From: Thraustochytrium aureum
Taxonomy: Eukaryota
NCBI GenBank assembly: GCA_012862495.1
Contig: BLSG01000404.1
Location: 1 to 58,215 of the forward strand
Reading direction: 5' to 3'
DNA: 58,215 nucleotides
The translations under genes were made by a program, and so were the position numbers. Each line of letters starts with the position of its first letter. Position 1 is the stretch's first letter. Positions 3,101 to 25,343 of the stretch are shown piece by piece. The notes beneath the pieces were generated by a model. The model was given only the letters and a program-made list of their open reading frames with translations, had not been told where the DNA came from and searched no databases.

Positions 3101-3858
3101 TCCATGTCATATCGCGCCAATGTGCGAGGCCTGGCGGGGAGAGTCTCCCCGCAAATGAGGGCAAACGCATCTTCTTTGGCTTTGGCAAACATTTCCCGTG
3201 AAAACCTCAGCGGGGGGCCCAGGCCATCGGCGATCTCGAGTAGCCTCTTGCGCTTGAAGGCCACTGTGAACAGTGCTCGCAGCAACCGGCGTTCAGTCGA
3301 GTTTTTCGGGAGCGAGTTGTGAATGCTAAGTGCTGCAGCTAAAAGCTTTTCTAGCTCCTTCGATTCGACAACGTCCGTTGTGAACGCCCTACTCGCTTCA
3401 GCGATCAGCGAGTCAGCGTCGTTCGGGGCCATAATCAGCCCAACAGAAGCAATAATGTGCTTGAGCGCGTTCACCATTCGCGCCCAGTGGTCCTTGCTCA
3501 AACTCGCCCTCAAGCTCGACGAGTTTCGTAGCGTTTGGCTTGGCATGTTTCGAAGCGTCCCGTGTGGAACTCCGAAAGCCGCAAAGAGTTGGCGCAGGGT
3601 CTTCACAACAACGACCTCATCCACCTCTTCAAGCAAACCCTCGTGTTCTGCGGGCTCTTCAAACGCCCCTTGTTCTGGGGCACACGATCGACGAGGCGTT
3701 ACTCGCGCAATTCTCTTATCCGTCGGTTTGGCCCAGCCTTTCGGCCTTCCGCGCTTGCCCGTGATTTCGGCATCCGGCTTGCAGTTTGAGCAGTGCTTCT
3801 CGCACTCACCTGGACACTTTGAGCACTGCGCGCGTTTGCACTTGCACGTCTTTGCCAT
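154..3858 (-). mobile_element. Intact ~1234-aa DDD transposase-like ORF, probably Sola3-type DNA transposon
   Basis: Uninterrupted ORF, first ATG at 3858. N-terminal Cys cluster (CKCKRAQCSKC..C..HC..C) and AT-hook (KRGRPKG). Core motifs IMDYKMK..FGKRGISWHG, IQSDNANYYH and ETADGKGLIDAHF supply three spaced Asp (codons 2278-2280, 2008-2010, 1885-1887). Family assignment is from recalled motifs. No TIRs visible (gap upstream, window edge downstream). Confidence 0.6.
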
Positions 3859-4266
3859 GCCTCTCGATTGCGCGCACGGCTCTCGTTCCACGCGTTTGTC
3901 AAGCGCAGACAGGACCTGCCACCCCGACCCCTCCAGCTCACCCGAACCACAGCCAACCAGGCCATGGTAGTGCGGCTATCGCANNNNNNNNNNNNNNNNN
4001 NNNNNNNNNNNNNNNNNNNNNNNNNNNNNNNNNNNNNNNNNNNNNNNNNNNNNNNNNNNNNNNNNNNNNNNNNNNNNNNNNNNNNNNNNNNNNNNNNNNN
4101 NNNNNNNNNNNNNNNNNNNNNNNNNNNNNNNNNNNNNNNNNNNNNNNNNNNNNNNNNNNNNNNNNNNNNNNNNNNNNNNNNNNNNNNNNNNNNNNNNNNN
4201 NNNNNNNNNNNNNNNNNNNNNNNNNNNNNNNNNNNNNNNNNNNNNNNNNNNNNNNNNNNNNNNNNN

Positions 4267-5209
4267 GCCCGCTCGCCTCGTTGCGGTGCAGTGCGAGGAG
4301 GTCTGCGACCAGCTTGCCCACGTCGAGGTATTCCGAGAACGCGGCCAGCAGCTTGGCCAGGCGGTCTTCGTCAGCGGCCGACCAGGTGTCCGCATTTTTC
4401 GCGCACGGCGCCTGCGCAGCTGCGCCGGGCGCAGGCGACGCGGCGACAAGTTGCGCCAGCTCTGGGAGGCAGCCATACATCGAGTACTCGGTGGCATACT
4501 GCTCAAAGTACGACCGAATCGACTCGAGGCACGTTGACAGCGCGTAAAACCCATCGAGCGAAAACCGGTTGAAGATGCCGCCGAGGACTGCCACGCCATG
4601 GTGCTCGAAGAAGACGCGGTTCAGATTGAAGCTGTCGATCGCGTTTCCAACCCCCTTGGGGCAGATCAGCACAACGGGAGCGCGCGCGGCCGCCGCCAGC
4701 TTTGCGTTTGAAAGTCCAACGATAGATCCCACCGCGGGAAACCCAACACCGTCAACGACCACGATGCGACGGCCGCGCCGTGCGGCAAGCTCGTCCACTG
4801 CGCGCTCGACATCGCGAACCATCTCTTCGCTACTCTTCGTCTCGCCTGCCAGGAACGCGCGGGTGAAGCCGCTCACGTAGACCACGGGTCCAATCGGCAC
4901 GCAGTCGATGCCCCGCTGCTCGCAGTACTTGGTCACGAGCTGCCGGGACTCGCACTGCGTGGCTGGTTTGATGTAGGCGACTTCGCTGGGGGCGTATCCG
5001 AGCTTTTCCACGAGGCTCGCTAGGATGCCCAGGCAGCACGAAGACTTGCCCACTTGCGACCTGTCTCCCGAGACGAACAACCGTGCTGCGAGCGCAGGGT
5101 CCTGGCCCGCGCCGTCGCCTTGGGCGTCGGGGCCATGGTCGGCACGAGTCCCATCGCCGCCGAGGGCAACCCTGGCGCACCACGCCGAGGCCGAATACAC
5201 GCGCTCCAT
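4267..5209 (-). CDS. BioD/dethiobiotin-synthase-like P-loop NTPase (AAA_26 / Pta N-terminal-like); 3' end hidden in gap 3984-4266
   Basis: ATG at 5209. LFVSGDRSQVGKS P-loop, AYIKP, VVVDGVG, GVGNAID and GGIFNRF are in the order expected for the BioD/CobB/Pta-N fold. Confidence 0.75.
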
Positions 5210-5235
5210 GCCGCAAGGCAAGCTAGTCAGGCTTT

Positions 5236-5292
5236 GCCAGCCAGCCTGCCCGCCAGCCAGCCTGCCAGCCTGCCAGCCAGCCTGCCTGCCTG
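5236..5292. repeat. Imperfect (GCCA/GCCT)n tetranucleotide microsatellite
   Basis: Direct reading: gccagccagcctgcccgccagccagcctgccagcctgccagccagcctgcctgcctg. Confidence 0.8.
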
Positions 5293-6234
5293 CGAGCTGG
5301 CCGGGTGCCTGGGCTCCCGCTTTGTCCTCCCCGCCGCGCAGCGAACAAGGCACGAGCACGCTCGAGTCAAAGTCATCCGAGTCCAGACCACCAAGTTCTG
5401 GCAGGAACGCCTGCCGCTCCCGTCATGGACCGCGCGGGGCGGCGCGGAACGCCGCTGCCGAGGGCGCTGTCGAGCGCGTCAAGAGCAGCCGCTCTGGGTT
5501 TCCAGGTCGCGCGGGCGAGGCGCCGGACGACCGGGGCCTCGTCCTGGACTGCGCAGAGCGGAAAGCGACCAACCAGAGCGCGAGTTGGTGCCTTGGGGTC
5601 AAACGACGACGCCAGTGCGACGGAGCCGAGCAGTCCGCGCAGGAATGCGATGCATTGGTTTTCGTGGGTGTGAGCGCGTAGTCCAGGCTGGTTTTTCGGA
5701 GTGCGGCTGGTTTTTCGGATTGCTTTGGTCTGGCGAGGTCGTCTTGGTTTTTGTTTGCGTTCCATGGGTTGAGTCGCACCTTTTTGGACATGTGTCAATA
5801 TCTGACTTTTGGCAAGGGTTGACGCGCCTCCAGCGTGCACGCGGGCGGCGCGGGCTCAAAACAAGACGCCGACGCTTGTCTCACTTGAAACATGTCTTGG
5901 CTGGCATGTTTGCTTTTCCAACGGAAGTCTGTGCCACGACCAGCAGTCTCGATTTGAGATCGGCAAAATCGCGCGCAACGCAGACAGCGCCCAAGGCAAG
6001 CAAGCAAGCAAGTACAGAAGCAGCTCGCCGTCAGGTCGACGTCAAAGCTACACCGTGTTCAGGCTCGAGCGCGGCCCGTGACAAAGCAAAACCCCAAGGA
6101 CGCGAAAGGATCGCACGATGGTCGCTGGACCTCAGAACTCTGACGCGGCGCCCCGTCCGTCCCAGCCCTCGGCAAGCCGCGCCGGCGTCTCCTCCGCTAG
6201 CACCGCGAACAGCCCCACCGGCAAGACTCTGATC

Positions 6235-7125
6235 ATGGCTCAAGGCCAGGTCGAGGTGGCGTGCGCGGCCGTCGCCGACGCCCGCGAGCTAGCCAAGCTC
6301 GAAGCGCACATCAACCCGGCCTACCGAGTCGGTGAGCGGGCCATCGCGGAGCGCATCCGCCTCGCCGGCGCGACAACGCTGGTGCTCCGCGCGAGTGGGG
6401 CAGTCGCCGGCGTTCTGTTTGCAGTCCGGTCTGACGTCAATGTCAGCTCCGTCCCTGGCGAGACGCCGTCCTACGCGAACTTTTACTCCGCCTTCTCGCC
6501 CGTTGGCAAGTTCGCCTATTGGCTTCACCTCATTGTTGCCCCGGAAAGCCGCCACCTGGTCAACGCGTTTCACGGCGCTGCAATTGACCATTTCCTGACC
6601 CAGCTCGGCTGCTCGAGCGTGCGCGCCATGACGCACCTCTCGGCACCGCCGACGGAGCTGGAGCGCGCTGCAGACGCCAAAGCAAAGGTCCATGCCGCGT
6701 CGGAGCACTGCGCGGCGGGGTCGAGATGGGACAAGAACCTGTTCCTGCATTCAAGCCGCGGTGCCAAGTTCTTGTGCGTGGTCCCAAGCTACAATCCGGA
6801 AGACCGGGCAAATGGAGGCTGCGCCATTGTCATGGAGTACACGCTCGCGTCCCGGGCAGAAATTGCGAACGGGGCCGCAACCGGCGCGACCACGTCTAGC
6901 GCTCGACTCGCGCCTGCGCGAATCCACGACCTGGTCCGCAATGCCGCTGGTGTTGACGAGGCAGTTGCGCTGGATCGCCACCGACCGTGGTTTGAGATGG
7001 GCTTGGACTCTGTCACCCTGATGGCCCTCCATCGCGCGCTTGAGGGGGAGATCGGGTCGGCTCTGGATGTCTCCTTCCTTTTTGGGGTCAACACCCTGGC
7101 CAAGCTCGACGCGGCCCTTGGGCCG
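6235..7125 (+). other. PKS loading module: GNAT-like decarboxylase plus ACP
   Basis: RAMTH...DKNLFLHSSRGAKFLCVVPSYNPEDRANGGCAIVMEY matches the CurA-type GNAT signature (Thr codon 6631, His codon 6748). ACP WFEMGLDSVTL, Ser at 7009. Confidence 0.85.
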
Positions 7126-10100
7126 CGCTATGGTGCGAACCCCACCGAGACGGAAACTGCGTCTGGCCTGGCGCAGCGCCAAGCAGGCCAACCCGAGCCT
7201 GTGGCGCCCCTGGCTATCTACGGTATCGGTCTACGCCTCCCCGGCACCGGCGAGAACGACATCGAGTCTTGCGAAGACCTTTGGGACGCTGTTGTAGCAC
7301 CCGTGGGGCAGTCGGAGCCAAAGGCCTTTCCCGCCAGCTCGCCAACCGGGAGCGAATCGACATGGAGACCTTCCGAGACCTCATCAGCCCAGAGCAGGCA
7401 AAGAGCATCCCGCTGGCGCAGCGCGTCGTGATGGAGACGACGTGTGCGGCTCTTGCTGACTGCCCGGAGGGCTTGATCGAGGAGACCGGGGGGCGCGTGG
7501 GTATCTTTGTGGGCTGTTGGGAACCTGCCGTCGGGCTGGACCCCGCCCGCAGTGGCGCGTCGGCCTCGGTGCATGCTGCCGCGGCCTGCTCCAACGCAAT
7601 TCTCGCCAACAGGCTTTCGTACCTGTTCGACTTTATCGGCCCGAGCCTGGTCATCGACACGGCCTGCTCGAGCTCCCTTGTTGCATTGGACGCTGCGCGC
7701 GCTGCTCTGCGCGAGGGCAAGTGCGCTGCGGCGATCGTAATCGGGGTCAATATCACCGACCCGCTTCGTTCGGACTTGCTCCGGACGGCGCACTTTTTGT
7801 CGCCGACCGGGGCGTGTCACACTTTCGATTCACGAGCGGACGGCTACGTGCGAGGCGAAGGCGGCGCCGCCATCGTTCTGGCGCCTCTGCGGGACGACAT
7901 TTCCCACCGCGCGCTATTGCTTGCTACCGCCGTGAACCAGGACGGTCGCACTGTCAACTTGCATGCCCCAAGCCCCGAGTCGCAAATGGAGCTTCTCGAC
8001 GCAGCATGCTCGGCAGCGCGCGTGGACCCTGTTGATGTTGCCTTTGTCGAGGCGCACGGGACGGGAACCCAACTGGGCGATCCCATCGAGGTCCGCGCTC
8101 TGCACCAAGTGCTCGGTGCGGCTCGCAAAGACGCTGATGAGCCTCTGTGGCTCTGCGCTTCGAAGGCCAGGTTTGGCCACACCGAGGGCGCAGCGGGCAT
8201 GGTTGGCATCGTCCATGCAGTGCTTGCTCTTCAAATGCGATTTCTCCCGCCGAATCCGTTCCTGCGAGAGCGAAACGGAGCCATCCCCTTCGAGGACTAC
8301 CGCGTCGCGCCAGTTGGCAGCAAGGGGGTTCCACTTGCTCCTCAAGGCAGGGTCGTCGCTGGCGTCTCATCGTTTGGGTTTGGAGGCACCAATGCCCACG
8401 TCCTGCTTGCTTCGCCTTCCGGCCAGGCAAGGGGGTTNNNNNNNNNNNNNNNNNNNNNNNNNNNNNNNNNNNNNNNNNNNNNNNNNNNNNNNNNNNNNNN
8501 NNNNNNNNNNNNNNNNNNNNNNNNNNNNNNNNNNNNNNNNNNNNNNNNNNNNNNNNNNNNNNNNNNNNNNNNNNNNNNNNNNNNNNNNNNNNNNNNNNNN
8601 NNNNNNNNNNNNNNNNNNNNNNNNNNNNNNNNNNNNNNNNNNNNNNNNNNNNNNNNNNNNNNNNNNNNNNNNNNNNNNNNNNNNNNNNNNNNNNNNNNNN
8701 NNNNNNNNNNNNNNNNNNNNNNNNNNNNNNNNNNNNNNNNNNNNNNNNNNNNNNNNNNNNNNNNNNNNNNNNNNNNNNNNNNNNNNNNNNNNNNNNNNNN
8801 NNNNNNNNNNNNNNNNNNNNNNNNNNNNNNNNNNNNNNNNNNNNNNNNNNNNNNNNNNNNNNNNNNNNNNNNNNNNNNNNNNNNNNNNNNNNNNNNNNNN
8901 NNNNNNNNNNNNNNNNNNNNNNNNNNNNNNNNNNNNNNNNNNNNNNNNNNNNNNNNNNNNNNNNNNNNNNNNNNNNNNNNNNNNNNNNNNNNNNNNNNNN
9001 NNNNNNNNNNNNNNNNNNNNNNNNTTGAGAGCTCAGCAAAGCCCAAGTTCGCGTGCTCCGCCCAGCGCCAGCGGCTGTCGCAAGGACCGGAGACGGTGGC
9101 CCGCTGGCTTTCCCGGTTCGGCCTGGCGCAGCTTATGTTGTTAGCGGTGGACTCGGAGGCATCGGGCAGAAGCTCGCAGTCGAGCTCACCGAACGTGGCG
9201 CAGGGCTCGTCGTACTCCTTGGCCGCTCGGAGCCTCCGCGCGAGCTGCCCACCTCGATTTGCCGTTTCGTGCAGTGCGACGTCAGTGACGCAAGCCAGCT
9301 ACGAGTCGCTCTCCAGGGCGTCCCGCAGAGCCCTGCCGGTGTCTTTCACTGCGCTGCATCGCTTGCAGACGCCACAGTGGCCAACTTGACTCCCGAAGCG
9401 TTCGCGCTGTCGTTTGGCGCCAAGGTCGCGGGAGCTGAAAACCTCATCGAGGCCTGCGCCGCGCAGGCTGACTTTGTCGTCCTCTTCTCGTCGGTCGTGG
9501 CAGGCTTTGGAGTTCCTGGTCAGGCAAACTACGCTGCTGCCAACGGCGCGCTGGATGACTTGGCTTGCGGGGTGGCGCAGCCTCCCCGTTCACAAACGTT
9601 TGGAGCCTTCGCTGGGGGCCCTGGGCCGGTGCTGGCATGGTTGGTGCAGGTGCGCAGCGCTGGTCTCGACTTGGCCTTCCCGCCCTCCGGCCAATACACG
9701 CAATGCAGGCACTTTTCAGCATTGTCAGGGACGATGAGGGCGATCGGGTGCTCACGATTGCCAACATCGAACCCAAGTCTGTGCGTGTCTCGCTGCCGCA
9801 TGTCGGAAACTACACAGCGCAGCTTGTAGCGAATTCAACGTCCGCAGCTGGAGAATGCGCGGCTCTCGTGCCTGGTGGAGAGCAGCTGGTGCGGAGCGTC
9901 GCTGTAGCTGTTGGGCTCTGCCGCACGGACGAGTCTCTCGAGATGGACGTAACGTGGCGTGAAGCTGGTCTCGATTCCCTTGGCATGATCGAGTTCCGCA
10001 ACCTAGTCCAAGATCGCTTGGCTGGCGTTGCCAAATTGCACGACACCATCCTCTTCGATTACACCTCGCCGCAAAAGCTTGCAGACTGGGTCGATAGCGT

Positions 10101-13100
10101 CGCGGTCGGGCCTGGCGATGGCACCGAAAAGAGGCGCGCGAGCAAGGCGCCTCGCAGTGTCTTGAACAATGGGACCCCGATTACTGGGGCTGCCTGTCGG
10201 CTTCCGGGCGGCGTCCGCTCGCCGTCAGACTACTGGCGGCTGTTGTGCTCTGGGGAGGATGCCATTGGCTCGATTCCCCTTGGCCGATTTGACGCAGAGG
10301 CGCTCATGTCCAGCAAGCCGTCTCCGGGAAAGCTGTACACTTCCCAGGCAGGCTTTATCGACGAGGTCGAGCACTTTGACTGCGCTTCGTTTGGAATCTC
10401 CCCTCAGGAAGCCACGTCAATGGACCCTCAGCAGCGCCTCGCACTGCAAGTGGCACGGGAAGCCCTGGCTTCAGCTGGCCTCGTTGGACGCGAAGCACGG
10501 ACGTCCAATGTTGGAGTCTATGTTGGCGTTATGACAAACGACTGGGCAAACGAGACCCGCGAGGCGTCCGGCGATCCGCTCTCTGCGTACTCTGCTGCGG
10601 GCCACATCCCGTGCGTGCTGGCAAACAGGATTTCGTACTGCCTGGGCCTAGATGGACCATCGATGAGCATCGACACGGCGTGCAGCTCGTCTCTCGTGGC
10701 CCTCGACGCCGCCTGCTCGGCACTTGACCGCGGCGATTGCGAAGCCGCAGTCGTGGTCGGAGTCAACCTGATATTGGGGCCACGGCTGTTTCTCGAGGAG
10801 TGCGCTGCCCGCATGCTCTCCCAACGCGGCCGCTGCGCAACCCTTTCAGAGGATGCAGACGGATACACTCGAGGCGAAGGCTGCGTCGCCTTCGTGGTTG
10901 AGCGAGCTCCGCCTCCGGGATGCACGCTTGCGAGGGTTCTGAGTTCCGCTGTAAACCAGGACGGCCGCAGCGCCAATTTGACGTCTCCAAGCGGCCTCGC
11001 ACAACAGGCTGTGGTGCGCACTGCGCTGGCGCGCGCGTCGATCTCGCCCGCTCGGGTCGATTTTCTCGAGACTCATGGCACGGGCACCCCTCTAGGTGAC
11101 CCGATTGAAGTCGGCGCGCTCGCGGCAGTGTTCGGCCAAGACGAGCAGCGCAGCGCTCCGCTCTACCTCGGGGCGTCAAAGTCTGTCATCGGCCACACAG
11201 AGGCGGCTGCGGGCCTGGCTTCCCTCCTGAAGGCGTTGCTTTGCCTCCACCATGGGCGTGTTCCCGCAAACCTGCATTGTGCCGCCGACAGAATCAACCC
11301 AAAGGTCCAGGCGCTCCTAGGGACGTCGCTCAGCCTCCCGACCGAGCCGGTGCAGCTCGTCTCGCGTGCCCCCGTTGCAGGCGTCTCCGCGTTTGGCTTT
11401 GGCGGCACAAATGCCCATGTCTTGATTGCGCTGGAGCCGAACTGCAGCCGCGCGCTTCTGGAGGAAAGCGAGCCGGAGCAGCGATCAGGGCGGGCTTCCC
11501 GGCTTCCGTGGGGCGCGGCATCTGGTTCCGTGTTTGAGGTGGACTGGGTGCCCTGCCCACGCCCTGGGAGTGAGAGGCCTTTCGATGGCCGCGTCTTGGA
11601 GGTCAACTCTGTCGCAAAGGTCCTGCAGCACCTGCACGCGGCTTCGCATGGGTCGGAGATCGCCTTTGTGACTCGCTCTGCGACTTGCGCCGACGAGCGT
11701 GCAATTTGGGGCCTCGTCCGCAGCGCGCGCCTAGAGAGGCCAGACCCTAAGCCTGCGCCTGTGGACGTCTCCGCCCTTGGTCGGGTTTCAAGCCTCGCGG
11801 CTCAGCCTACCGGAGGACGAGCCTGACGTCTCGCTCCGACCCAGCGGACCGCCCATGGTGCCTCGCCTGGTGCCGTCGCAGGCGCGGCTTGAACCTTTCG
11901 GGCTGCGCCTCCTAGACGCCGAGTCCGCGCGCATACTTATTACGGGCGGTTCTGGCGGCATCGCGACCAGCGTTGCGAGGNNNNNNNNNNNNNNNNNNNN
12001 NNNNNNNNNNNNNNNNNNNNNNNNNNNNNNNNNNNNNNNNNNNNNNNNNNNNNNNNNNNNNNNNNNNNNNNNNNNNNNNNNNNNNNNNNNNNNNNNNNNN
12101 NNNNNNNNNNNNNNNNNNNNNNNNNNNNNNNNNNNNNNNNNNNNNNNNNNNNNNNNNNNNNNNNNNNNNNNNNNNNNNNNNNNTGCGGCGCCACATGGCG
12201 GTCAAGGTGGGCGGCGCCAAAAACCTGTGGGAAATCGTCGCGCCGCGTTCCATCATCACATTTTCGTCTACATCAGCCATTTTGGGCATGAAGCGTGGAG
12301 CGGCCTATGCGGCGGCAAACGCAGCGTTGGACGCCATCGTGGAAGAATGGGCAGCTGAGCTCACTGCGGCCGGGGACGTGGGTCGCCACGCCATAAACAT
12401 CAGATGGGACATTTGGGCGGAGGCTGGGATGGCGCACGACCGCGCAATGGGCTCGAGCACACGCGGGCTTTCGACGCTCAGGGCTTGTCAGCTCCTGGTT
12501 GGGGTGATGTTAAACCCCACGCAAGTCCCCCGCTCAGTCGTTCTCGCTGATGCGGACTGGGGCCACGTACACCGTGCGACCGGTGCGCGCCTACTAGAGC
12601 GCTTTTCAAAGGGCCAGACGAGCGCGCCCTCGCGGGAGTCTGGCATGGGCTCGACCGGGTCTGGGCCGCTTGTTGGCCCGCTGAGCGCTGGTCGGGCGGA
12701 CGTGTTGGACTGGGTGCTCCGCGAAGCCGCTCGATTTCTCAGTGTCGCTGCCCCGCCGGACGAGCCAAGCAAGGGCGATGCGTTTGAGCTGCTCCCGGAG
12801 ACGCCGTGGAACCAGGCCGGCTTTGACTCACTGAGCATGACTGACTTTATTGCGCACGCCAACGGCGCTCTGAGGCTTGGAGAGGACCACGAACTCAGCG
12901 ACACGGCTATGTTTGACTTTCCAAGTCCGACGGCGCTGGCTGAGTTTCTAGCTTCCGAGTTGAAGGGGCTCGGCTACGAGCAGCGCGAGGCCACGGTGGG
13001 GCGGATGGCCGCAGAGGAGGCGCTCCCCGAGTCGCAGGCTCGGTTTGAGCTCGACATTGTCGGTATGGCGCTCCGGTTCCCCGGGTCTGTGCGCAATGTG

Positions 13101-16100
13101 ACCCCCGACGGGTTTTGGGACTTCCTCGTCCAGGGCGGGGACGCGATGCGCGAGCTGCCCGCCGATCGGTTCCCCGGCCTCGCGGAATCCAAAGGCGTCT
13201 ATGTGCAGCGAGCCGCCCTTCTGCACCCTGACGTATTCGACGATGCTACTCGCGCTTCGCACCTTGCAGCATCCGCGCGAGTGCCCTTTTCCGGGGCTGA
13301 GCTCGCCGGGGCTGATCCGCACCAGAAAATCGCTTTGCAAGTCGCCATTGAGGCCCTCGACGAGGCTCGCGCTGGCGGGGCCGACCTGTCCAAGGTCGGC
13401 GTCTTCGTTGGAGCGCAGAATCCGGAATTTACGGTGGCTCAGCAGGGCAAAGTTTCGACGTATACTGCAACTGGGACGGCGCTGTCCATTATCGCCAACC
13501 GCATCTCGTTTGCGCTCGACCTCCGTGGTCCATCGATGACAGTCGACACTGCTTGCTCCTCTTCGCTTGTTGCGCTTGACGCGGCTTCCAAGGCGATCAG
13601 GAACGGCGACTGCACCGCAGCTTTGGTTCTCTCGGTGGACTTGATGCTCTCGGTCCATCGGTTCGAAACAACCTGCGCAGCGCGTATGCTGAGCCCTCGC
13701 GGCAGGTGCGCAACCTTTTCCGCCGACGCAGACGGCTACGCGCGGGGCGAAGGCTGTGGAGCTATCGTAGTAGCTGCCTGTGCGGCAAGCCTCGCGCCCG
13801 CATACGCCACAGTGCGAAGTGTTGCCATCAACCAAGACGGACGCAGCGCCAACCTCACCTCCCCGCGCGGCCCCGCGCAAGAGGAGGTGATCCGAGAGGC
13901 CCTACGGCGCGCTGAGATTGACCAAGCAGCCATGGAGGATGTGGCGTTTGTAGAGTCGCACGGAACTGGAACAGCCCTTGGCGACCCGCAGGAGCTCACA
14001 GCGCTGGCCAACGTCTTCCAAGGCCGGAAGAACCCGCTCCTGGTCGGGGCGACCAAAACCAACGTTGGGCACCTGGAAGCGGCGGCCGGCATCGTGGGAC
14101 TCATCAAAGCTGCACTTTGCTTGTCCCGCCGCGAACTTCCGGGCAACCTCCACAACGACGCAGAGAACCCTCGGCTTGCGCGCCTGCGCTCCAAGTGCGT
14201 CATGGAATTCCCGCGCGGCAGGCCAACCGCGTTGCCCAGGTCGGGGATGATCTTTGCAGGCGTTTCCTCCTTCGGATTCGGAGGGACGAACGGACACGCC
14301 ATCCTCGGCTCGGTCGCCCCAGAGCGCGCTGCGGCCATGCGCAAGCTTGCCAGGCAAAGGCCAATGACGGGCCCGGGGCAAAAGACCTTGAATGTCGTTG
14401 GCGGCGGAGAGGGGCGATGGAAGATTGGCATTGAGGCAGAAGGACTCAGTGTTGTGCGCCAGCACAGGGTCGGCAACCTTGAGGTGGTGCCTGGGACTAC
14501 GTACATCGAGCTCATCGACGCACTCGTCAGCGCTGAGAGCGACTCGCCCGCTTTTCTGCTCACCGACCTCGACTTCCACGCGATGCTCTTCGTTGGAGAA
14601 ACTGCCGAGCGACTGGACCTGGCCGTCGTAGAGGTTGGCGAAGACGCGTCTCGTCTCGGAGGGCAGACGCCTCGAAATCCGCTCCGATGACAGCAAGAAG
14701 TGCTATGCTGCGCTGACGCTCGAAATCTTGGCGGAGCCTCGCGCTGAGGCACTCGACCTCGCCCGCATGCAAGCGCTCTGCACGGTTGAGCTCCCTGCCG
14801 GCCCAGAGCTGTACGCTTCGTGCGGGAACGCGTACGCAGGCCCCTTTCAAGGACTGACAGAGGCCCGAGCTAGCCCGGACGGCTCGTTGCTCCTTGGCTG
14901 CGTCAAGCTGAGCAGCGCGGTTTCGCAAACAATGCAACCGTCAGTGTGGCTCGACGTGGCCTCTCACGTTGCGCTTGCGGCACTTCCAGCGTCAATGCGG
15001 TCCCGCCCTGTCTTCGCGGCACGCGCCCATGGGTATTACTCTGCTCCACGGAGTGCCAAGCGACTTGAGTCGGACTGCCTCTGGACTGTCCTGGAGCGGC
15101 GCGGAGAGCGGGCCTTCAACATGCGCGTGTTTGCCGCAACCAGCGGGCAGTTGCTGGCCGAAGTGAGCGAGTTTGAGTTTGGCTTCTTCAACGCGCCGAA
15201 CGCCGCGCGACTGATCTACCGAGACGTGTGGGTGCCGCCTGGCGATGCCGCGCGGCCCGTCTCGCCAGGGTCGCGCGCTTTGCTTATCGACTCTGCGTCT
15301 GTCCCGGAGCTTCTTGGCGCTGTGCAGGATGTCGTACGGCATGGCACAAACGGCCGCCGTGTTCAAGTGTTGGCTCGCACTGCTGGCCAGGTCGGGCTTT
15401 GCCGCTCGCTTGCAACGGAGCACCCGGCGCTCGGAGTTCAATGCGTCGTGCCTGGGACTGGTCAAGCTGTCGACGGGGAGCTCGCCAAGGCGGCGGAGGC
15501 CGCACTTGCGATTCCGGAAGCCGAGGTCCGACTTGACCGCGACGGAATACGGGTGCGCCGCCTCGAACGGTGTAGCGAGAACGAGCACGGGCCGCGTGCG
15601 ATTCGTGTCATTCAAAACGGGACCTACGTGGTGTCTGGCGGCCTGGGCTCACTCGGACGCCTTGTCTGTGAGGAGCTCGTCGCGCGCGGCGCTGGTCGTG
15701 TCATCGTGCTGGGGCGGTCAGAGCCATCGCCATCGCAACCAGTTCCACACAGGTGCGAGTTCCTCATTTGTGACGTTTCTGACGAGACCGCCCTCACCAG
15801 AGCAATCGGGCCATTCTGTGGCGAGATTCGAGGCGTCGTCCACTGTGCCGGCGTGCTCCAAGACAAGACAATCCTGAATCTCTCGCGAGCGGACCTTGAC
15901 GCCGTGTTCGCCGCAAAGGTGCTCGGCGCGCGCAACTTGGACATGCTGGTGTTGCCCAAGCTGGACGCCTTCGTCCTGTTTTCNNNNNNNNNNNNNNNNN
16001 NNNNNNNNNNNNNNNNNNNNNNNNNNNNNNNNNNNNNNNNNNNNNNNNNNNNNNNNNNNNNNNNNNNNNNNNNNNNNNNNNNNNNNNNNNNNNNNNNNNN

Positions 16101-19100
16101 NNNNNNNNNNNNNNNNNNNNNNNNNNNNNNNNNNNNNNNNNNNNNNNNNNNNNNNNNNNNNNNNNNNNNNNNNNNNNNNNGCTTTCTGCCGTTGAAGGGA
16201 TCGAGGCGCTCTTCGCCGTCCCGGCGTCTGCCGGTCCCGTGGTCACAATCACGCACTTGGACGCGGAAGTCTGTTCTCGTCGGGGGGACCTCTACATGGC
16301 CAGGCTCGTCCAGCCTGCTGTAGCGAAGGCTGCGATCGAGGAAACGCCGCTGGTGTGTGCGGGACGGGCCAGGCCATGGCGGCCCGCCTAGGGTCTCCGG
16401 CAGCTTGGCTGCGTTTCGTTCTTGACGCAAGCGAAGAGGTCAACCCAGGCGCAGGAGTCGGGCAGAATGCCGCAAGCACGCCATGGCGCGAGGCCGGCCT
16501 CGATTCCTTGGGGATGGTGGAGCTTCGGAATATGCTGCAGCATGCGGCTGGCATCGAGCTGGAGGAGACGATCCTTTTTGACCACCCTACCCCGCAAGCT
16601 GTGGCAGACTGGCTCGCGGGCCAGGCGCCACCGATGCAAGTGGCCGCGGTGGACGCAGGTGCCGTCGATTCAGCTGCTTGCGGCTCCTTCGAAGCCGGGG
16701 GGTCGAGACCCGCTGCCGAAGAAGACGACGCGGTAGCTATTACAGGTGTTGCTTGCAGGCTCGGCGGCGGAATCGAGTCCCCAAGCGCCTTCTGGAACCT
16801 TTTGTGTAGCAGTCAGCACGTGATCCGGGAGGTCCCTCGGGATCGTTTCAAAGTCGACAACCTCTACGACGCAACGCCGGGGACTCCAGGCAAGGCGTAC
16901 ACATTCCAAGGCGCTTTCCTTGCCGATGTTGAGCTCTTCGACCACACTGCTTTTGGGGTGTCAGAGCAAGAGGCCATGCGCATGGACCCTCAGCAACGCC
17001 TCGCGCTCGAAGTTGCTGTCGAAGCGCTGGCGGGCGCCGGTCTCGTCGACCCAACGCGCCCAACGGCGGGGACGAGGGAGAACATCGGCGTCTTCGTCGG
17101 TGCCATGACTAGCGACTGGGCCGTGCTTGCTGCCACAACGAGCAGCAAAGACGGGCTAGGGCCCTTTGGCCCGCCTTCACCTTTCACGGCGACAGGGCAC
17201 GCGAGCGCTGTTATCGCAAACCGCATCTCATACGAGCTCGGGCTAAGCGGGCCGTCGCTGGCTGTCGACACTGCCTGCAGCTCTTCGTTGGTGGCACTTG
17301 ACATTGCCCTCGCAAGCTTGGAGCGCGGCGACTGCACGGCAGCCGTGGTGCTCGGGGTCAACCTCATCCTCTCGCCGCACCTCTACATTGAGGAGTGCGC
17401 CGCACGGATGCTCTCTCCAACCGGCCGCTGCCACACATTTTCGGCACAGGCGGATGGATACGTGCGCGGCGAAGGGTGCGTCGCATTCGTTTTGCAGCGG
17501 GTGGGCAGCATCGCCAACAACCTTTCCCGAGCCCCGCCTCTCGCTGTGGTCCGCGCGGTGGCCGTCAACCAGGACGGCCGCAGCGCGAACTTGACCTCCC
17601 CGAACGGGATTGCGCAGCGCCAAGTGATAGAGCGGGCCATTCAGCGCGCGCGCGCCTCGGTTGACGATGTCGACTACATTGAGACGCACGGGACCGGCAC
17701 CGCTCTGGGCGACCCCTTGGAGGTGGCGGCACTATCCAAGACCTTTGCTGCTCGGAATGCTTCGCGGATGCTCTGCCTTGGGGCAGCCAAGTCAGCCGTG
17801 GGCCACACTGAGGGCGCCGCCGGGGCCGTGGGACTCCTTAAGGCAGTGCTCTGTTTGCACCACGGCGTCGTGCCAGGAAACGCAAGCCTGCGCTGTGCAC
17901 CAGATCTTAGCCCCAAGGTCGCAAGCGTTGCTCTGCCTCAGATGGTCTTCCCGGGCCATGGCGACCAGTTCGAACTGCGCAAAGATGCGCTTGTCGGTGT
18001 TTCGTCGTTCGGTTTTGGAGGCACCAATGCTCACGCCATAGTCTCCCGCTGGCGGGGGGACGCGAGGGCGCCCAAGCCGACCCGGACCTCGGGGTACAAG
18101 GCCGTGTCCTTGGAGCAAGACGAGATTTGCGTGGGTCGACCCAGAGCACGTCTTGGCGCTACCCCGTTCTGATCTCGCGCAGCGCCTGCCAGTGCAGGTT
18201 TTCGGCCTGGGCCTCGAAAATGTTGGACCAGCTTGCCTCGCCGTTGACCGGCTGGCCTGGAATGCCCTGCGTGCTGGCGGGAGTTCGCTTCTCTCTGGAG
18301 TTGAGGTGCGGGATCTGTGGTCGCTGGACGCCCGCGGACTTTCAGAGCCGCACCATGGCGACGAGGCCCGTGCGGCTGTAGCCGAGGGTGGGAGCGCTGC
18401 CGCAGGCCTCGTTTCGGCGATTTGCCAGCTCGACCTGTTTGCTCCGCAGCCAGCAAGTCGCCAGCTCGATCCCGTCAACGGTCTGCTGCGCCCCATCGAA
18501 GAGCGCGGTGTAGGTTTCCTCGGCCGCGCGGGCGGCGCTGTCGTCGAATCCGTGTGGCGGCACCCTGAGGGCTCGTTGTTGATCCACTTTCCCGCGGGGG
18601 CTGCATCCGAGAGCTGCGTCGTTGATCCGCTTGCGTTCTGCATTGCAGTGCAGGCACTTGAGCTCGATTCACAAGTGGCTCAGTCCCTCGCGTCAAGCAA
18701 TACCCAGGAGCTCGTGGCTGTGGACCGCCTTGCCGTTCTAGCACGGCCGCGGGGCGCGAGATGCTCTTTCGCTGCGCTTGTTGAGCCCCGCGAGGGCCGG
18801 ATCTCCTTCGCAGACATCACTGGGGGTCGGTGCAAGGTCCTCGTCGTTCTGGACGGCGTTCGCTTTGGCGATGGCGCGAGGTTTGGCAACACGAGCGAGT
18901 TCAAGCGTGTGTGGCGCCCGTGCGGCTCGTTCCGAGTGAGCGAGCGTGGAGCGCTTCCAATTACCTGCGACGCTGACGAGCTCGCTCGCGCCGTGGTTCC
19001 AAGCCAGACACTTAATACTGGAAGGGACGCGGCGTTGCAAGCCAAGTGCTCGTCGGGCATCCGCGCTGTTCTCGCGCGGCTTGATGCCGACTTTCAGCCG

Positions 19101-22100
19101 GCCGAGCCGCACCTCGTTGCTGCCTTGGCACGATGGCGCGACGCGTACCAGGACGAGCCGCAAGACACCACAGCAACGGGGCACGGGCAATGGGATGGGC
19201 CAGAGTTCGAGTTTTTCGAGTTGTGCGAGCCCCACCTCGAGGACATCATTCGCGGCCGCGTCAAGGCGGTCGACGTCCTCTTCGCCAACCCGGCGCTCAC
19301 AACGCGGCTGTACCGCGACTCGGGCCCCTCAGAGCCCTGCAACGTTGCGCTTGCTCAGAGCGTGCGACATATCGCTTCCGAGATATTGTCTGCGCGGGGC
19401 CCGGGGGCGGTGGTCCGAATCCTCGAGCTCGGCGCGGGCACCGGGGGCACAACGATGCATGTGCTGCCTGCGCTTGGAGATCTCGCGCGCCAAGTCGAGT
19501 ATGCCTTTACTGACATCAGCGACTACTTTCTCCGTGCCGCAGCGAAACACTTTTCTGGTTCTGCGGCGGCGATGCAGTTCCTGCTCTTGGATATCGAGCA
19601 GGACGCCAAGGCGCAAGGATTCGGGGATTGCAGCGTCGACATTGTGATTGCCTCCAATATAATCCATGCGACGCAGAGCCTGCGCACTACACTCGGCAAC
19701 GTGCACCAGATCCTCGCCGAAGGGGGATACCTGTTGCTGAACGAGGCGACCGTTTCCACGGCGTTTCTAGACGGCACCTTTGCGCTCACTGACGGCTGGT
19801 GGAGGTACCTGGGCGTCGACGAGGCACGGCGATCGCGCTCAGGGCCGCGTCCTGGACCCTGCTTCCTGGGGCTCGGTGNNNNNNNNNNNNNNNNNNNNNN
19901 NNNNNNNNNNNNNNNNNNNNNNNNNNNNNNNNNNNNNNNNNNNNNNNNNNNNNNNNNNNNNNNNNNNNNNNNNNNNNNNNNNNNNNNNNNNNNNNNNNNN
20001 NNNNNNNNNNNNNNNNNNNNNNNNNNNNNNNNNNNNNNNNNNNNNNNNNNNNNNNNNNNNNNNNNNNNNNNNNNNNNNNNNTCTCCGTGTCGAGAATCGT
20101 GCATCGGGCCGCGCAAGGCCAGGTTGTCTTCGCCGCCCAGCGCCCCGTCCAGGAAGCCACTCTGGCAAAGAAGCCGGACGCGCCCTTTCTCACTCCTGCT
20201 GGGTGCCGGAGGCTGGAACACAGCCTCAGTCGTGCCGCTGCGCAAGGAACCAGCGTGCACATTCTCTCACGCGTTGCCCTGGAGGACGTGGCGACAGCGG
20301 AAGCCATTCAGCACGTTGCCTTTCGCGCCGCTAGCGCTTTCGTCAAGGGCCCAGATCACACGCTCGTTTTCGTGACTTGCTCGGACGAGTGCCCCGCGCA
20401 CGCCATGGCTTGGGGCATGGCCGCATCGATTCGGAACGAAACGCCAAAACGCGTGCTCTGTATTGATGTGGCCGCGCAGCTGGATGCGCAACAGGTCGAG
20501 GCACTCGTGCGCGCCGAGGTGGATGGCCTCGCAGAAGGCGACAGGGCAGAGTACCAGGTGCGCTTTGACCCGGCCGGGCGCCGGCTTGTGGCCAAGCTCG
20601 TCGCTTGCGATGCTGCACGACAGCTGAACGCTGTTTCTCGCCCGGGTCACAGTGGCGTGGTGGATCCTCGCGGCACGTATTTGATCACAGGCGGTCTTGG
20701 CGGGCTTGGCCTCGTGGCCGCCAGCCTGCTGCTTGAGTGCGGGGCGCGCAACCTCGTCCTCGCCTCCCGGTCTGGGACTCTCAGGCACGGCTTGGCATCC
20801 GAGGAGGTAGAGCGAGAGCTAGTCCAGGTGATTCGGTCGTGGCCTGGGGCGAATGTTCTGGAGGCTGCTTGCGATGTGTCTGACAGCGCAAGCATCAAAG
20901 CGCTCTTGGATCGGGTCGACGCAAGCATGCCTCCAGTTGTGGGAATAATCCACTCGGCAGGCCTCACGCACGACGCGCTCTTCAAGGAGCAAGAGTGGGA
21001 TTCGCACTTCGTGCCGCTCCTTGGTGCCAAGGCGCGCGCCGCCCTGCTCCTTCACAACGAGTCCGTTGAGCGGGGCTACGAGCTTTCCTCGTTTTGTGGC
21101 CTTTTCCTCTGCGGCTGGTACGTTCGGCTCGCCTGGCCAGGCCAACCACGCCGCGGCGAACGCGGTTCTTGACGCTCTGGTAGAGCTCCGCCGCTCCCGG
21201 GGGCTTTGCGGCGCCTCGATCGCCTGGGGCGGCTGGACGGGGGTCGGTGCGGCCGTCGACAAGGTGGGCGCGAGCTCGAAGATTGCGCAGCTCGGCATGG
21301 GTCTCGTACCTGTTGAAATGGGTCGGAGCGTTCTGCGAAAGGTCCTCGCGCACGATGTGGATGGCTGCTTTGTGGTGTCCCCCATCGCGTGGCCAGCATT
21401 TGTTCGGCAGCAAGCCGACCTCGATTTTGTGAGCCCGTGCGTCACCAACGGCGCTAGTTCGCGCGAGGGGGCTTCGGCAAGCGTGCTGCAAAAGGAGCCC
21501 GAAAGGGCCAACGTCCAGGATGTCGTTGACGCTGCGCAAGTGCCCGGCCCATCCGTATCGGGTTCCGATTCCGAGCTGATCAACTTGCATGTCGAGCTCG
21601 AGGCGCTCCTGGCGCGATGCGGTGTGGGATGCTTGGAGACAAGCTTCGTGGACCAAGGCCTCGACTCGCTCAGCTCAATCGAGATCATCGCACTCGTACG
21701 GGAGGAGTTTGGGACCAAGCTCACGCCAACGTTTTACTTGGACCTCGAGAACGGCCTCGCGCTTGCAGAGCACTTGCTCGCTTCGCAAGCCCAGACGCGA
21801 GTACCGCAAGGCAGCGCGCCCAGTCGGGCACTTGATGGTTCTGTCGCGGCCTCCCGCGCGCAAGCGAGCGGGGAGCCTCGCGCGGCAGGTCCGACGGACC
21901 TCGCCTCCTCGCCGTGGATCGAGCCGCCGCTCAAGCCGGCGATGCGGCTGTTCTGCTTTGCGTACGCTGGAGGGCACCCGAACGTGTTCCAGTGCTGGCT
22001 GCCGTTCGTGCCGTCCTCGATCCAAATCTGCCCGATCTCAATGCCGGGGTACGGCAAGCAGACCGACCGCCCATTCTGGAGCTCCGTGCCCGACTTGGCA

Positions 22101-22745
22101 GAGTCGATGTTCCGCTCGCTACCGACCGACGTCCCGTTCGCTCTGGTTGGCTCGTGTCTCGGCGCCATCGTCGCGTTCGAGGTTGCCAAGCGGCTGGGAA
22201 CGGCGGGCGGTCCCCTTCCCTCCCTGTTGTTCCCGATCGCATGCTGCGCGCCGCAAGACTACTCGGCGGCACTGCGACTGCTCTACAGCAACCGGCTCAA
22301 GGAGAACACCTTTTTCGTCCCTTCTGACGAGGAGCAAGCTGTCGAGCGTTTTGCCGATCTCAGCGAGGCGGAGCGCGAGTTCACTGTGAACGACTTGCGC
22401 AGCCTCGGGTTTTTCAAGGACGACGAGACGCTTGCCAATCTGAAGGCCAATCAGGCCTATTTTGAGCACGTCATGTCGCAGCTCGCTGGGCAAATGCAGC
22501 TTGCAGAGCGATACCAATTTGTCCAAGGCGCCCTTCCGGCGGGCATGCCGGTTGTGAGCGTCAGCGGCGCGATGGACGAGACGATTCCGGAGGGTTGGCC
22601 GAGGCGTTGGGGCGAGAGGGCAACCCAGGCTCAGCACAAGCACTTTGAGATCGAGGATGGAGGGCACTACCTTGTCCACACGCATCCCCGCGAGGTAACT
22701 GAGATCTTGCTTGATGCACTTTCTGGCGCTGCCAGGTCGACATAG
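6235..22745 (+). CDS. Giant AT-less modular type I polyketide synthase (~5500 aa; GNAT loading module, 4 extension modules, TE), frameshifted and gapped in this assembly
   Basis: ATG 6235, TAG 22743-22745. Consecutive + strand ORF pieces join inside domains. 4 KS (each DTACSSS, HGTGT, GH[TL]E), 5 ACP (GxDS), 4 KR, DH, C-MT, TE. No GHSxG acyltransferase is visible. Confidence 0.93.
7207..10100 (+). other. PKS module 1: KS-[gap 8438-9024]-KR-ACP
   Basis: KS IDTACSSS/EAHGTGT/GHTEGAAG/SFGFGGTNAH. KR SGGLGGIG, ASLAD (B-type-like Asp), GQANYAAAN. ACP AGLDSLGM, Ser at 9976. Confidence 0.88.
10174..12960 (+). other. PKS module 2: KS-KR-ACP
   Basis: KS MDPQQR/DTACSSS/ETHGTGT/GHTEAAAG. Structural KR part (FEVDW..IWGLVRSARLERP). 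KR TGGSGGIA..GAAYAAAN, with gap 11981-12183 inside. ACP AGFDSLSM, Ser at 12828. Confidence 0.9.
13045..16620 (+). other. PKS module 3: KS-DH-KR-ACP
   Basis: KS DTACSSS/ESHGTGT/GHLEAAAG. DH QHRVGNLEVVPG and PSVWLDVASH. KR SGGLGSLG, AGVLQD (B-type); its catalytic Tyr region falls in gap 15984-16180. ACP AGLDSLGM, Ser at 16505. No ER. Confidence 0.9.
16727..21785 (+). other. PKS module 4: KS-degenerate DH-C-methyltransferase-KR-ACP
   Basis: KS DTACSSS/ETHGTGT/GHTEGAAG. MT ILELGAGTGGTT, FTDIS, SNIIHAT, LLNE, GWW. KR TGGLGGLG..GQANHAAAN. ACP QGLDSLSS, Ser at 21666. The DH-sized segment (~18170-18870) lacks the catalytic His and Asp. Confidence 0.88.
21940..22745 (+). other. PKS terminal thioesterase (type-II/GrsT-like sequence, Cys at the nucleophile position)
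   Basis: RLFCFAYAGG, MPGYG, PFALVGSCLG (Cys codon 22155-22157), GAMD, GGHYL. Confidence 0.88.
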
Positions 22746-23302: not shown

Positions 23303-24345
23303 TCAATCGGTTCCCTCCTTGACCTCTTCGGCACATGCGGTGTCGGCCAGCGCAGTGTCGGCACTCGCGGTGTTGGCCCCATCTTCCTTTGGCGCCATAG
23401 TTGCTAGGGTTTTGCGCATCCGCTGCAACGCCTGTATACCTGTTACGGCATTCTTGAACTTGCGCGTCGCATTGTACTCTTTCAAGCGCGTCAAGTTTCC
23501 GGTGAGGTCCGAGTTGGCATCGCTCGTGAGCCAAGGGTGCTTGAGCACTTCACTTATGGACGGCCGCTGCACCGGGTTTGTGACGAGCATAAAATCGATA
23601 AAGTCCTTGGCGTCCTTGGACACGTTGTCCCAGTATGGCGAGGGAAACTCGTACTTGCCACGCTTGATCTGGCGAAAGAGCTCCGCGTTGTTCGGGTGGT
23701 AGAACGGAGGAAACCCACAAAGTAAGATGTAGGCGATGACGCCAAAGCTCCAGACGTCGACCTTATAGTCGTATTTTTCCCCGTGGAGGATCTCCGGCGC
23801 GACGTATCCAGGTGTACCGCACGCAGTTTTCATGAAGGGCTCCTCCTTGCAAACCTTTGCAAGACCAAAGTCGGCCAGCTTGACGACCGAATCATCCGTG
23901 GTGTCGGCGTACAACAGGTTCTCTGGCTTGAGGTCGCGGTGGACGATGAAGTTCTTGTGGCAGTACTCGAGCGCTTCGGCGATCTTGGTGAGGTCGCGTC
24001 TGGCCATGGCCTCTTCGTAGTGCTCCTTTTCGACAATTCGGTCAAACATTTCGCCGCCAGTCATCAGCTCCATGACTAGGTACACGTTTTCTTCGACCGA
24101 TATGTTTCGTAGAGCTTGACGATGTTCGGATGGTTGAGATCGTGCAGGATCTGCATCTCCGTCTCGAGGGCATCAGCATCCTCGCTCTTCATCGTTGTCA
24201 AGTTCATGATCTTGACCGCTCTGACGACGCTCTTGTCGTCCTTTAGCGTGGCCACTTTGACTGTGGCAAAGCTCCCAGTCCCCAACGTCTTGGAAACCTT
24301 GTACTTCTTCGAGAACTCATCGGAGTTGAAGAAGAACGACGGCAT
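23303..24345 (-). CDS. CAMK-group Ser/Thr kinase (CaMKI-like); one indel at ~24087-24090
   Basis: LGTGSFATV, AVK, HRDLKPEN, DFG, CGTPGYVAPE, and a C-terminal LKEYNATRKFK regulatory helix. The two ORF pieces join if one A is added to an A run (SKKNVYLVME). Confidence 0.92.
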
Positions 24346-25343
24346 CACGCCTGCCTCGTCCGTCTGCCTGCGTCGTGCCGGCGCTCGCGCTGGCAACTTC
24401 GGCCCTTAGCTAACCCCACCGCTTTCTTGGCCGGCTCTCCGCGCCAAATACCCTTTCACACAGGCGCAGGCCGATCGATCGATCGATCGACCGACCGACC
24501 GTCTTCCACGCGCGCACGCAGGCACGAACGCACGTCTGCACGCCCGCACAGCTGCTCGCTCGCTACCCGCTCAGTTCACCGGCTGCGCAGCAATGGCTCG
24601 AGTAAGCGCTCTGCCTGCGAACCCACTTTGCTTGCTTGTAGTGCGCCTCGCCTTTTCCGTGCTCCTTGAAAGGCTGTAGAATCAGCACTGCGTGCATGCC
24701 TGGTTGTCCATCAAGTCAAGCAAGCCTGCTCACTGCCCTCTGGCCAAGCAGTCAGTTCCACCCCACTTGGTCGTTGGCAGACTCGCGCAAACTAAGGCGC
24801 TCGAGGCGAATCGATGGGTGAGAGGTGGTCGAGCCACCCACTGTCCTGCGAACAAGCTTTGCCTCCGCGCAAGACTCCGCGCTGGGACCTCGTGATGGAA
24901 GTGATCGCATTCCTCTCCGTTTCAATCAAGAACACTGGACAGAACAGCCTTTCAGGAAACAAAAGGAAACGACCAAACTCGATTGCAATGCCGCGCCTTC
25001 GCCGCGCCGCGCCAGTCCTCCTGGACCGGCCACACCACGCTCACCGAAGCCGCCGGCCGGCCCGCCCGCGGCCCTCCACAAAACCAGCACGAAATTCCAC
25101 TCCAAAGCGTCGTAGATCCGTTGACATCGAGGCGGACTTGGGCGGAATTACCGGCTGTTTTTTGAATTTCAAAATGGCCAATCGCGATTGAAAATACGTG
25201 GATCGGGAGTTTGGGGATTTTTACGACGCCACTGCGTTTGGTGCGTGATGCGCCTTCTCGGCTGGCTCCTGTGCGTTGAGGCCGACACCCGCCGCGGTCG
25301 CCATGCGGCGCAATGCGCAGGCGATGTGCTGGCTTCGCGAGCT

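Follow-up and report, generated by a model that had tools for sequence, protein, structure and literature searches.

How does a modular polyketide synthase (PKS) release its product when the thioesterase (TE) at its end carries a cysteine in place of the usual nucleophilic serine? The question is raised by a 58,215-nucleotide stretch of the Thraustochytrium aureum genome (assembly GCA_012862495.1, contig BLSG01000404.1; hereafter the window), which encodes a large PKS ending in a TE with the motif G-S-C-L-G. An earlier note on this DNA had read the motif as a replacement of G-H-S-x-G in a normally stand-alone type II TE fused in cis, and had suggested, by comparison with ObiF and SulM, that release might be cyclisation or acyl transfer rather than hydrolysis. 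Our analysis indicates that this TE is real, conserved and probably functional, and that it belongs to a distinct clade of Cys thioesterases with an extended lid. Transfer of the chain to a hydroxyl group is the mode of release we tentatively favour.

Codon, reads and catalytic triad of the terminal thioesterase

Feature coordinates are collected in Table 1, and residues are numbered on a 281-residue query taken from window positions 21900-22742, in which the triad is C86, D226 and H256. The G-S-C-L-G motif lies in a single open reading frame (ORF; 21021-22745) with the acyl carrier protein (ACP) and the C-terminal part of the ketoreductase (KR). We compared the assembly with read contigs from four runs, among which X1 and X2 belong to different studies, X1 may represent the source sample and X2 may be an RNA run. 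The X2 contig over 21929-22214 spans the Cys codon with no differences from the assembly; the X1 contig begins at 22150, five bases ahead of the codon, with no difference listed there, and the X3 and X4 pieces begin at 22158, after it. The departure from G-H-S-x-G is thus confirmed in frame by an independent contig, and the same Cys recurs in every row of the clade described below.

Alignment and modeling agree on which residue occupies the nucleophile position. In a phmmer alignment to RedJ and RifR, C86 falls on the catalytic Ser and S85 on the His that precedes it. An AlphaFold model built from a 31-row alignment (pLDDT 89.2, pTM 0.89) places C86 as a single coil residue between a strand (residues 80-85, ending on S85) and a helix (87-101)—a nucleophile elbow—with D226 following strand 218-223 and H256 following strand 246-251. 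D226 is invariant in all 31 rows of alignment A1, and position I is filled by a small residue, A114, an arrangement that, together with the Asp after beta7, is read from alignment and secondary structure rather than from distances. The Cys-His-Asp triad is complete, and the elbow residue of the model is the Cys rather than the Ser ahead of it, which settles in favor of Cys a point that the earlier note had left to modeling. A second Cys, C115 (22242-22244), lies just after strand beta6 and may adjoin the active site; it is kept in the six closest rows and in the bacterial TE P0004.

A long-lid clade of cysteine thioesterases

The clade comprises eight rows: the window, P0001, P0032, P0166, P0167, P0168, P0246 and P0275. 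Cys is present in all eight, and Asp and His, whose retention (GAMD and GGHYL) had been claimed from the window alone, are kept in all seven that extend that far (P0167 ends early). The residue ahead of the Cys is Ser in five rows, Ala in P0168 and Thr in P0246 and P0275; because the Cys is invariant while its neighbor varies, the preceding Ser is not the nucleophile. A near-length search yielded 31 matches among 3,115 candidates (3 Cys, 28 Ser), including one close orthologue, P0001 (61%, GSCLG), and a search of longer proteins yielded 10 among 7,994 scored (6 Cys, 4 Ser), including P0032 (59%, GSCLG), which shows the order KR-ACP-TE. A profile search covered 1.84 billion representatives with a query that included the KR of P0032, so that most of its 150 rows were KR-driven; it added P0166 and P0167 (GSCLG), P0168 (GACLG, in all five members of its cluster) and, further removed, P0246 and P0275 (GTCLG, in all three members of the P0275 cluster). 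The TE is fused in P0032, P0166, P0167 and P0168 as in the window, and end-to-end identities within the clade go down to 29%.

The lid spans 82-88 residues in the clade, about 30 more than in 32 relatives of the Ser type, where the median is 56 and the range 49-66. Among four close orthologues it is also the most conserved region of the TE, with 52% of positions invariant compared with 50, 41 and 26% in three core segments, and because of this conservation it suggests a specific substrate. The two distant members, P0246 and P0275, are AT-less by Pfam (AT, acyltransferase), carry a hydrophobic C-terminal helix after the G-T-C-L-G TE and look eukaryotic, perhaps algal; the ketosynthase (KS) domains of P0275 are 31-37% identical to those of the window. 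NCBI labels P0167 as the dinoflagellate Durusdinium trenchii, yet its TE is 66% identical to that of the window, and its KS2 and KS3 are internally truncated; our guess is that the label stems from assembly contamination.

We constructed two quick trees, of 88 and 34 rows, with the ObiF1, SulM and MacB sequences outside both; the larger holds 99 rows minus 11 (one partial and ten weak type I), 13 near-duplicate domains having been removed earlier. The long-lid rows (eight in the larger tree, seven in the smaller) form one clade with SH-aLRT support of 98. The bacterial G-H-C group forms a separate clade (97-99), and the stand-alone bacterial G-S-C-T-G TEs P0004 and P0045, which were considered as closest kin and do share the motif, fall instead into a pair of their own (95-96). 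Ser-to-Cys changes occur in several separate TE groups of these trees. An approximately unbiased (AU) test on joining the long-lid and bacterial G-H-C clades gave p 0.68, the constrained tree lying 5.7 log-likelihood units above the free tree; because the union was not rejected, one or several Ser-to-Cys origins are both possible. At the nucleophile position the 99-row alignment holds 46 Ser, 44 Cys, 8 Asp and 1 Asn, numbers that reflect selection by these searches and give no frequency estimate.

Fold and characterised relatives

Searched against the sequences of the PDB, the domain matched RedJ (E 9e-16), RifR (1e-10) and ObiF1 (0.0028), with SulM absent at E 0.01. A fold search returned ClbQ (VIA Z 26.9; root-mean-square deviation, rmsd, 2.6; 236 aligned), RedJ (25.7), BorB (25.3) and YbtT (25.2), followed by ObiF1 (21.9; rmsd 3.3; 235 aligned), SulM (21.6) and OocS TE-B (19.1), and the Foldseek ranking agrees in placing type II TEs first. 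The window TE shares with the stand-alone type II enzymes RedJ (3QMV), RifR (3FLA), ClbQ (5UGZ), BorB (6VAP) and YbtT (6BA8) the fold, the N-terminal motif R-L-F-C-F-x-Y-A-G-G, the Asp after beta7 and the small position I; it differs in having Cys for Ser, Ser for His before the nucleophile, the longer lid and fusion in cis. The description of a type II-like TE fused in cis is accordingly borne out by sequence and fold matches and by its place in frame after KR-ACP, but such fusion is not odd in itself, as type II-like TEs with Ser or Cys are common at PKS ends in bacteria.

The TEs of ObiF1 (6N8E) and SulM (8W2C/8W2D), which form beta-lactone and beta-lactam rings, share with the window TE the Cys-His-Asp triad with Asp at position II. 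As defined in the SulM paper, position II is the type II default and therefore does not discriminate in favor of kinship; in that paper's tree, both TEs group with type II TEs (PMC11298585). Both belong to nonribosomal peptide synthetases (NRPSs) with peptide substrates, receiving a beta-hydroxy or beta-sulfamate amino acid, whereas the window TE follows a PKS module, KS-MT-KR-ACP (MT, C-methyltransferase), and no A or C domain was found among the window ORFs scanned. MacB-TE (macolacin) is a Cys macrocyclase whose nucleophile is indispensable for ring closure (PMC13288461); it makes an NRPS macrolactam and has its Asp116 27 residues after Cys89, in contrast to the far-downstream Asp of the window TE, a distinction drawn from its description rather than its sequence. 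Intermolecular transacylation onto a hydroxyl has precedents in the O-acylating PKS TEs Cong-TE, Ela-TE and OocS TE-B (PMC12979598), the first two, which form macrodiolides, being known here by description only. In ebelactone off-loading, attack of the 3-OH on the thioester gives a beta-lactone (PMC4979870) and, unlike in the window system, needs no TE. BurA and TabJ were set aside as Ser enzymes, and the available passages on phenylnannolone offered no Cys link.

The host synthase and the chain it would deliver

The TE ends a gene with the module order GNAT-ACP / KS-(DH in N gap)-KR-ACP / KS-KR-ACP / KS-DH-KR-ACP / KS-DH0-MT-KR(His)-ACP-TE(Cys), where DH is a dehydratase and DH0 lacks its catalytic residues. 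All four KS domains keep Cys-His-His, and we detected neither an AT nor an enoylreductase (ER) anywhere in the window. A DH in module 1 is suggested by the orthologue P0167, which has the same domain order with a DH at that place, and by Mn4_04057, a thraustochytrid PKS-like gene tabulated in 2018 as PP-KS-DH-KR-PP:KS-KR-PP-KS-DH-KR-PP:KS-MT-KR-PP-TE (PMC6050695, Table 4). The latter, compared here by its domain order, equals the window order; the passages on it in that paper name no product, list no GNAT and do not comment on the active site of the TE. KS domains of Aurantiochytrium and Aplanochytrium are included in PMC4661987. In the GNAT-like domain (6250-6870), the His and Thr aligned with CurA and GphF are kept, Y-R-P has become Y-N-P (also in P0167) and T-R has become T-H; its starter chemistry may differ.

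Table 1. Coordinates of the terminal thioesterase and of its host synthase in the window
Feature	Position	Strand	Remarks
AT-less modular PKS gene, whole	6118..22745	+	about 5,540 codons; 7 frameshift junctions, 4 N gaps
GNAT-like loading domain and loading ACP	6250..7110	+	weak, near full-length match to GphF GNAT (E 0.0075) and 7UCI (0.0073); partial to CurA GNAT (0.059); PP-binding
DH-like region ahead of MT	~18110-18920	+	without catalytic His/Asp
C-methyltransferase, module 4	19200..19760	+	S-adenosylmethionine motif intact
Terminal KR, catalytic part	20672..21330	+	NADPH motif, Lys and Ser intact; one-base assembly indel at 21092
Terminal ACP	21633..21780	+	G-L-D-S-L, Ser 21666-21668; Pfam PP-binding
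Terminal TE, type II (RifR/RedJ-like) alpha/beta-hydrolase fold	21900..22745	+	Pfam PF00975, E 3e-16; stop TAG 22743-22745
Nucleophile elbow G-S-C-L-G	22149..22163	+	GGC TCG TGT CTC GGC; Cys codon TGT 22155-22157
Extended lid	22251..22514	+	88 residues; median 56 in 32 Ser-type relatives
Triad Asp D226 (S-G-A-M-D)	22575..22577	+	position II, after strand beta7 as in type II TEs
Triad His H256 (G-G-H-Y-L)	22665..22667	+	invariant in 31/31 rows of A1 and 7/7 clade rows

The window copy of the gene is broken by frame changes at 7329, 9572/3, 11745-11785, 14661, 16341, 18061-18108 and 21092. Short-read contigs carry indels that net-match the frame change at all seven junctions; for three junctions the indels come from at least two studies and for the other four from X1 alone, the N gaps lying outside this judgement. 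Because of these compensating indels, and because the kinase gene next door is frameshifted too, the PKS gene is likely intact and its frameshifts assembly errors. Introns were rejected as a cause of the frame changes: no joints were found, and the changes are single-base indels. The neighboring gene, a CaMK-like kinase on the minus strand (23303-24400), is split by a one-base frameshift, in line with assembly indel errors.

In the terminal KR, a His at 21147-21149 replaces the catalytic Tyr. The change is found in all four close orthologues that show the site (window, P0032, P0166 and P0167), three of which account for three of the seven cases of His among 385 KR motifs scanned; according to a review, this Tyr is sometimes His (PMC7327777). 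The terminal KR of P0168 has Tyr, within a different tail (KS-DH-ACP-KS-KR-ACP-TE). In the five sequences whose last module can be seen (window, P0166, P0167, P0168 and P0275), we recognised no intact DH ahead of the terminal KR-ACP-TE, and for that reason the 3-OH is the likeliest shared nucleophile. By collinearity, and assuming the starter and the module 1 DH, we infer an ACP-bound chain that is roughly 2-methyl-3,7-dihydroxy-deca-4,8-dienoyl (C10), or its 3-oxo counterpart if the His-KR is dead.

Release of the chain

The reading we favor, with a probability of about 0.5, is that a Cys-thioester relay operates in the TE and that O-acyl transfer releases the chain onto a hydroxyl instead of water. 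Cys86 would take the chain from the ACP by transthioesterification and keep it as a reactive thioester beneath the long lid, while His256 and Asp226 would promote attack by a hydroxyl, giving a beta-lactone, an oligoester or diolide, or an ester with an outside acceptor. An alpha-methyl-beta-lactone closed through the 3-OH is the single most likely product, though improbable when taken by itself; head-to-tail joining by the 3- or 7-OH into an oligoester or diolide is a shade less likely, as is transfer of the chain to an outside acceptor. Chains of the 7-hydroxy-enoyl type form 16-membered diolides. By analogy, non-hydrolytic release is plausible, as all three natural Cys TEs for which the literature consulted gives a characterisation (ObiF1, SulM and MacB) cyclise. 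The C1146S variant of ObiF1 gives hydroxy acid only (PMC6668435), and MacB-TE cyclises without hydrolysis, its C89S variant mainly hydrolysing and forming no ring (PMC13288461). In PikTE, S148C raises kcat/Km and allows an unnatural epimer to be cyclised (PMC7327777).

Several observations weigh against this reading. The characterised precedents are all NRPS domains, and the comparison with ObiF1 and SulM, which stands as a precedent for Cys, would be one of chemical analogy rather than shown kinship: their elbow motifs (His-Cys in ObiF1, Gln-Cys-Asn in SulM) are absent from the window TE, which has Ser-Cys-Leu and is nearer to RedJ, RifR and ClbQ. The closest solved relatives, ahead of ObiF1 and SulM, are all type II TEs of the hydrolytic type. 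A bacterial Cys-TE, that of P0228, follows a fully reducing DH-ER-KR module, and because of this case Cys does not imply beta-hydroxy ring closure. The Tyr-to-His change in the terminal KR, finally, makes the 3-hydroxyl uncertain, and a strained ring needs that hydroxyl.

Some of the same evidence favors ordinary hydrolytic release by a Cys-variant type II TE, a possible outcome that we consider less probable than acyl transfer; it would yield a free hydroxy acid or, with a dead His-KR, a beta-keto acid and from it an ethyl ketone. The fold and best matches are those of type II hydrolases, the Tyr-to-His KR may be inactive, a dead terminal KR leads via a beta-keto acid to a ketone in engineered PKSs (PMC7327777), and the repeated Ser-to-Cys changes fit a tolerated swap. 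A neutral swap, however, would not predict a Cys fixed over so deep a clade, and Cys-to-Ser substitution turns ObiF1 and MacB from cyclisation to hydrolysis. It is improbable that the TE does not release at all, whether as an editing or holding domain or as a decayed TE in a broken gene. The frameshifts that split the window copy and the weak expression of Mn4_04057 (3.5 fragments per kilobase per million, FPKM; PMC6050695) point that way, but the frameshifts are compensated in short-read contigs and have a counterpart in the kinase gene, the full triad and lid are conserved, and a scan of 34 ORFs turned up no second release domain. Least credible by far is that the nucleophile is the preceding Ser, or that the Cys codon is an error: Ser does adjoin the Cys in most clade rows, but its replacement by Ala or Thr in the others, its alignment with the His of G-H-S, which refutes the idea, and its place at the end of the strand in the model all speak for Cys, and the X2 contig confirms TGT.

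Returning to acyl transfer, a more speculative and rather unlikely extension is that the long-lid clade represents a so far undescribed eukaryotic chain-joining transacylase, joining hydroxy-polyketides to one another as oligo- or polyesters or attaching them to acceptors in the wall or membrane. A likeness can be drawn to polyhydroxyalkanoate (PHA) synthases, whose Cys lipase box acts on 3-hydroxyacyl thioesters, and the hydrophobic C-terminal helix of P0246 and P0275 would suit a membrane-anchored transferase. If true, this would reveal what is made by the giant orphan PKSs of thraustochytrids and possibly other protists.

Thraustochytrids are cultured for omega-3 oils, and both the chemistry of release and the orphan product could be tested directly, given a domain of 281 residues and a substrate that can be predicted as C10-C11. 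For engineering, a Cys cyclase or transacylase native to a PKS would be of use, a purpose that PikTE S148C now serves. Cys TEs as such are known, natural ones making up about 2% of known TEs (PMC13288461); the novelty lies in a separate clade of them with long lids, at the end of an orphan protist PKS whose small substrate can be predicted. The characterised natural Cys TEs found in the papers covered are NRPS cyclases, while the window TE ends a PKS conserved in thraustochytrid-like protists. Our literature search turned up neither a characterised natural Cys-TE at the end of a modular PKS nor any comment on the window TE, within a coverage that left out most subscription papers and with GSCLG not itself a query; GHCLG returned no papers.

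Bacterial cysteine thioesterases and neighboring genes

Uncharacterised bacterial TEs at PKS ends with G-H-C-x-G (often as TE-TE tandems) or, in rhizobia, G-F-C-x-G resemble the window TE in their type II fold, Cys elbow and place after KR-ACP. They differ in a lid of 55-56 residues (71 in the rhizobial branch) and in being mostly cis-AT, and the G-H-C-x-G clade has His ahead of the Cys where the window clade has Ser, Ala or Thr. Type II-like TEs at bacterial PKS ends thus include Ser forms in Burkholderia plasmid PKSs (L066 and L068), G-F-C forms in rhizobia (L067 and L069) and G-H-C forms in many others. In the C-terminal tandems of P0033, P0034, P0188, P0208 and P0225, the first TE has G-H-C-x-G and the second has Asp at the nucleophile position (G-H-D or G-A-D). 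The Burkholderia plasmid clusters (L066, 14622-22360; L068, 14565-22297) encode a carbamoyltransferase and three PKSs, the terminal TE being type II-like with Ser, and a gene of the avidin family comes next.

A pattern scan of GTDB returned 54 loci, most of them type I NRPS TEs with G-W-C, five without a TE profile match and only one, L027, type II-like; as the pattern also admitted Trp, Thr and Cys at its Ser position, the scan is no census of G-S-C TEs. At L027 (Planctomycetota, 5010-13642), the G-S-C-T-G type II TE stands alone, and its neighbors are a TubC_N-PCP protein, an NRPS of the order C-A-PCP, a hydrolase and a tRNA synthetase of class I (Leu-type). Among 44 stretches of metagenome DNA scanned with the single TE there were no relatives; with alignment A2, 11 of 191 were relatives, all distant, with elbow Ser in all eight that were read and three unread. 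No relatives occurred among 67 viral contigs, a short KR query matched no plasmid, and an exact look-up of six window proteins gave no matches.

The window itself is eukaryotic and intron-poor, encoding an actin-related protein, Fizzy-related, Sec62, Sec16 and the kinase. For the Fizzy-related protein, the top matches over the full length show 72-80% identity, and the first of them to carry an organism name is from Hondaea fermentalgiana (72%); further named stramenopiles reach at most 69% across 77-97% of the query, or 74% across 68%, and a single row with an insect name had a higher bit score at 52% identity across 65% of the query. These matches point to a thraustochytrid-like host. On the minus strand, a 1,245-codon ORF (154-3891) without a Pfam or NCBIfam match has a Cys-rich N-terminus and an acidic motif pattern that gives the impression of a DNA transposon protein. 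Between it and the PKS, and divergent from the PKS start, lies a gene (3938-5359, minus strand) resembling AAA_26 and the N-terminus of phosphate acetyltransferase.

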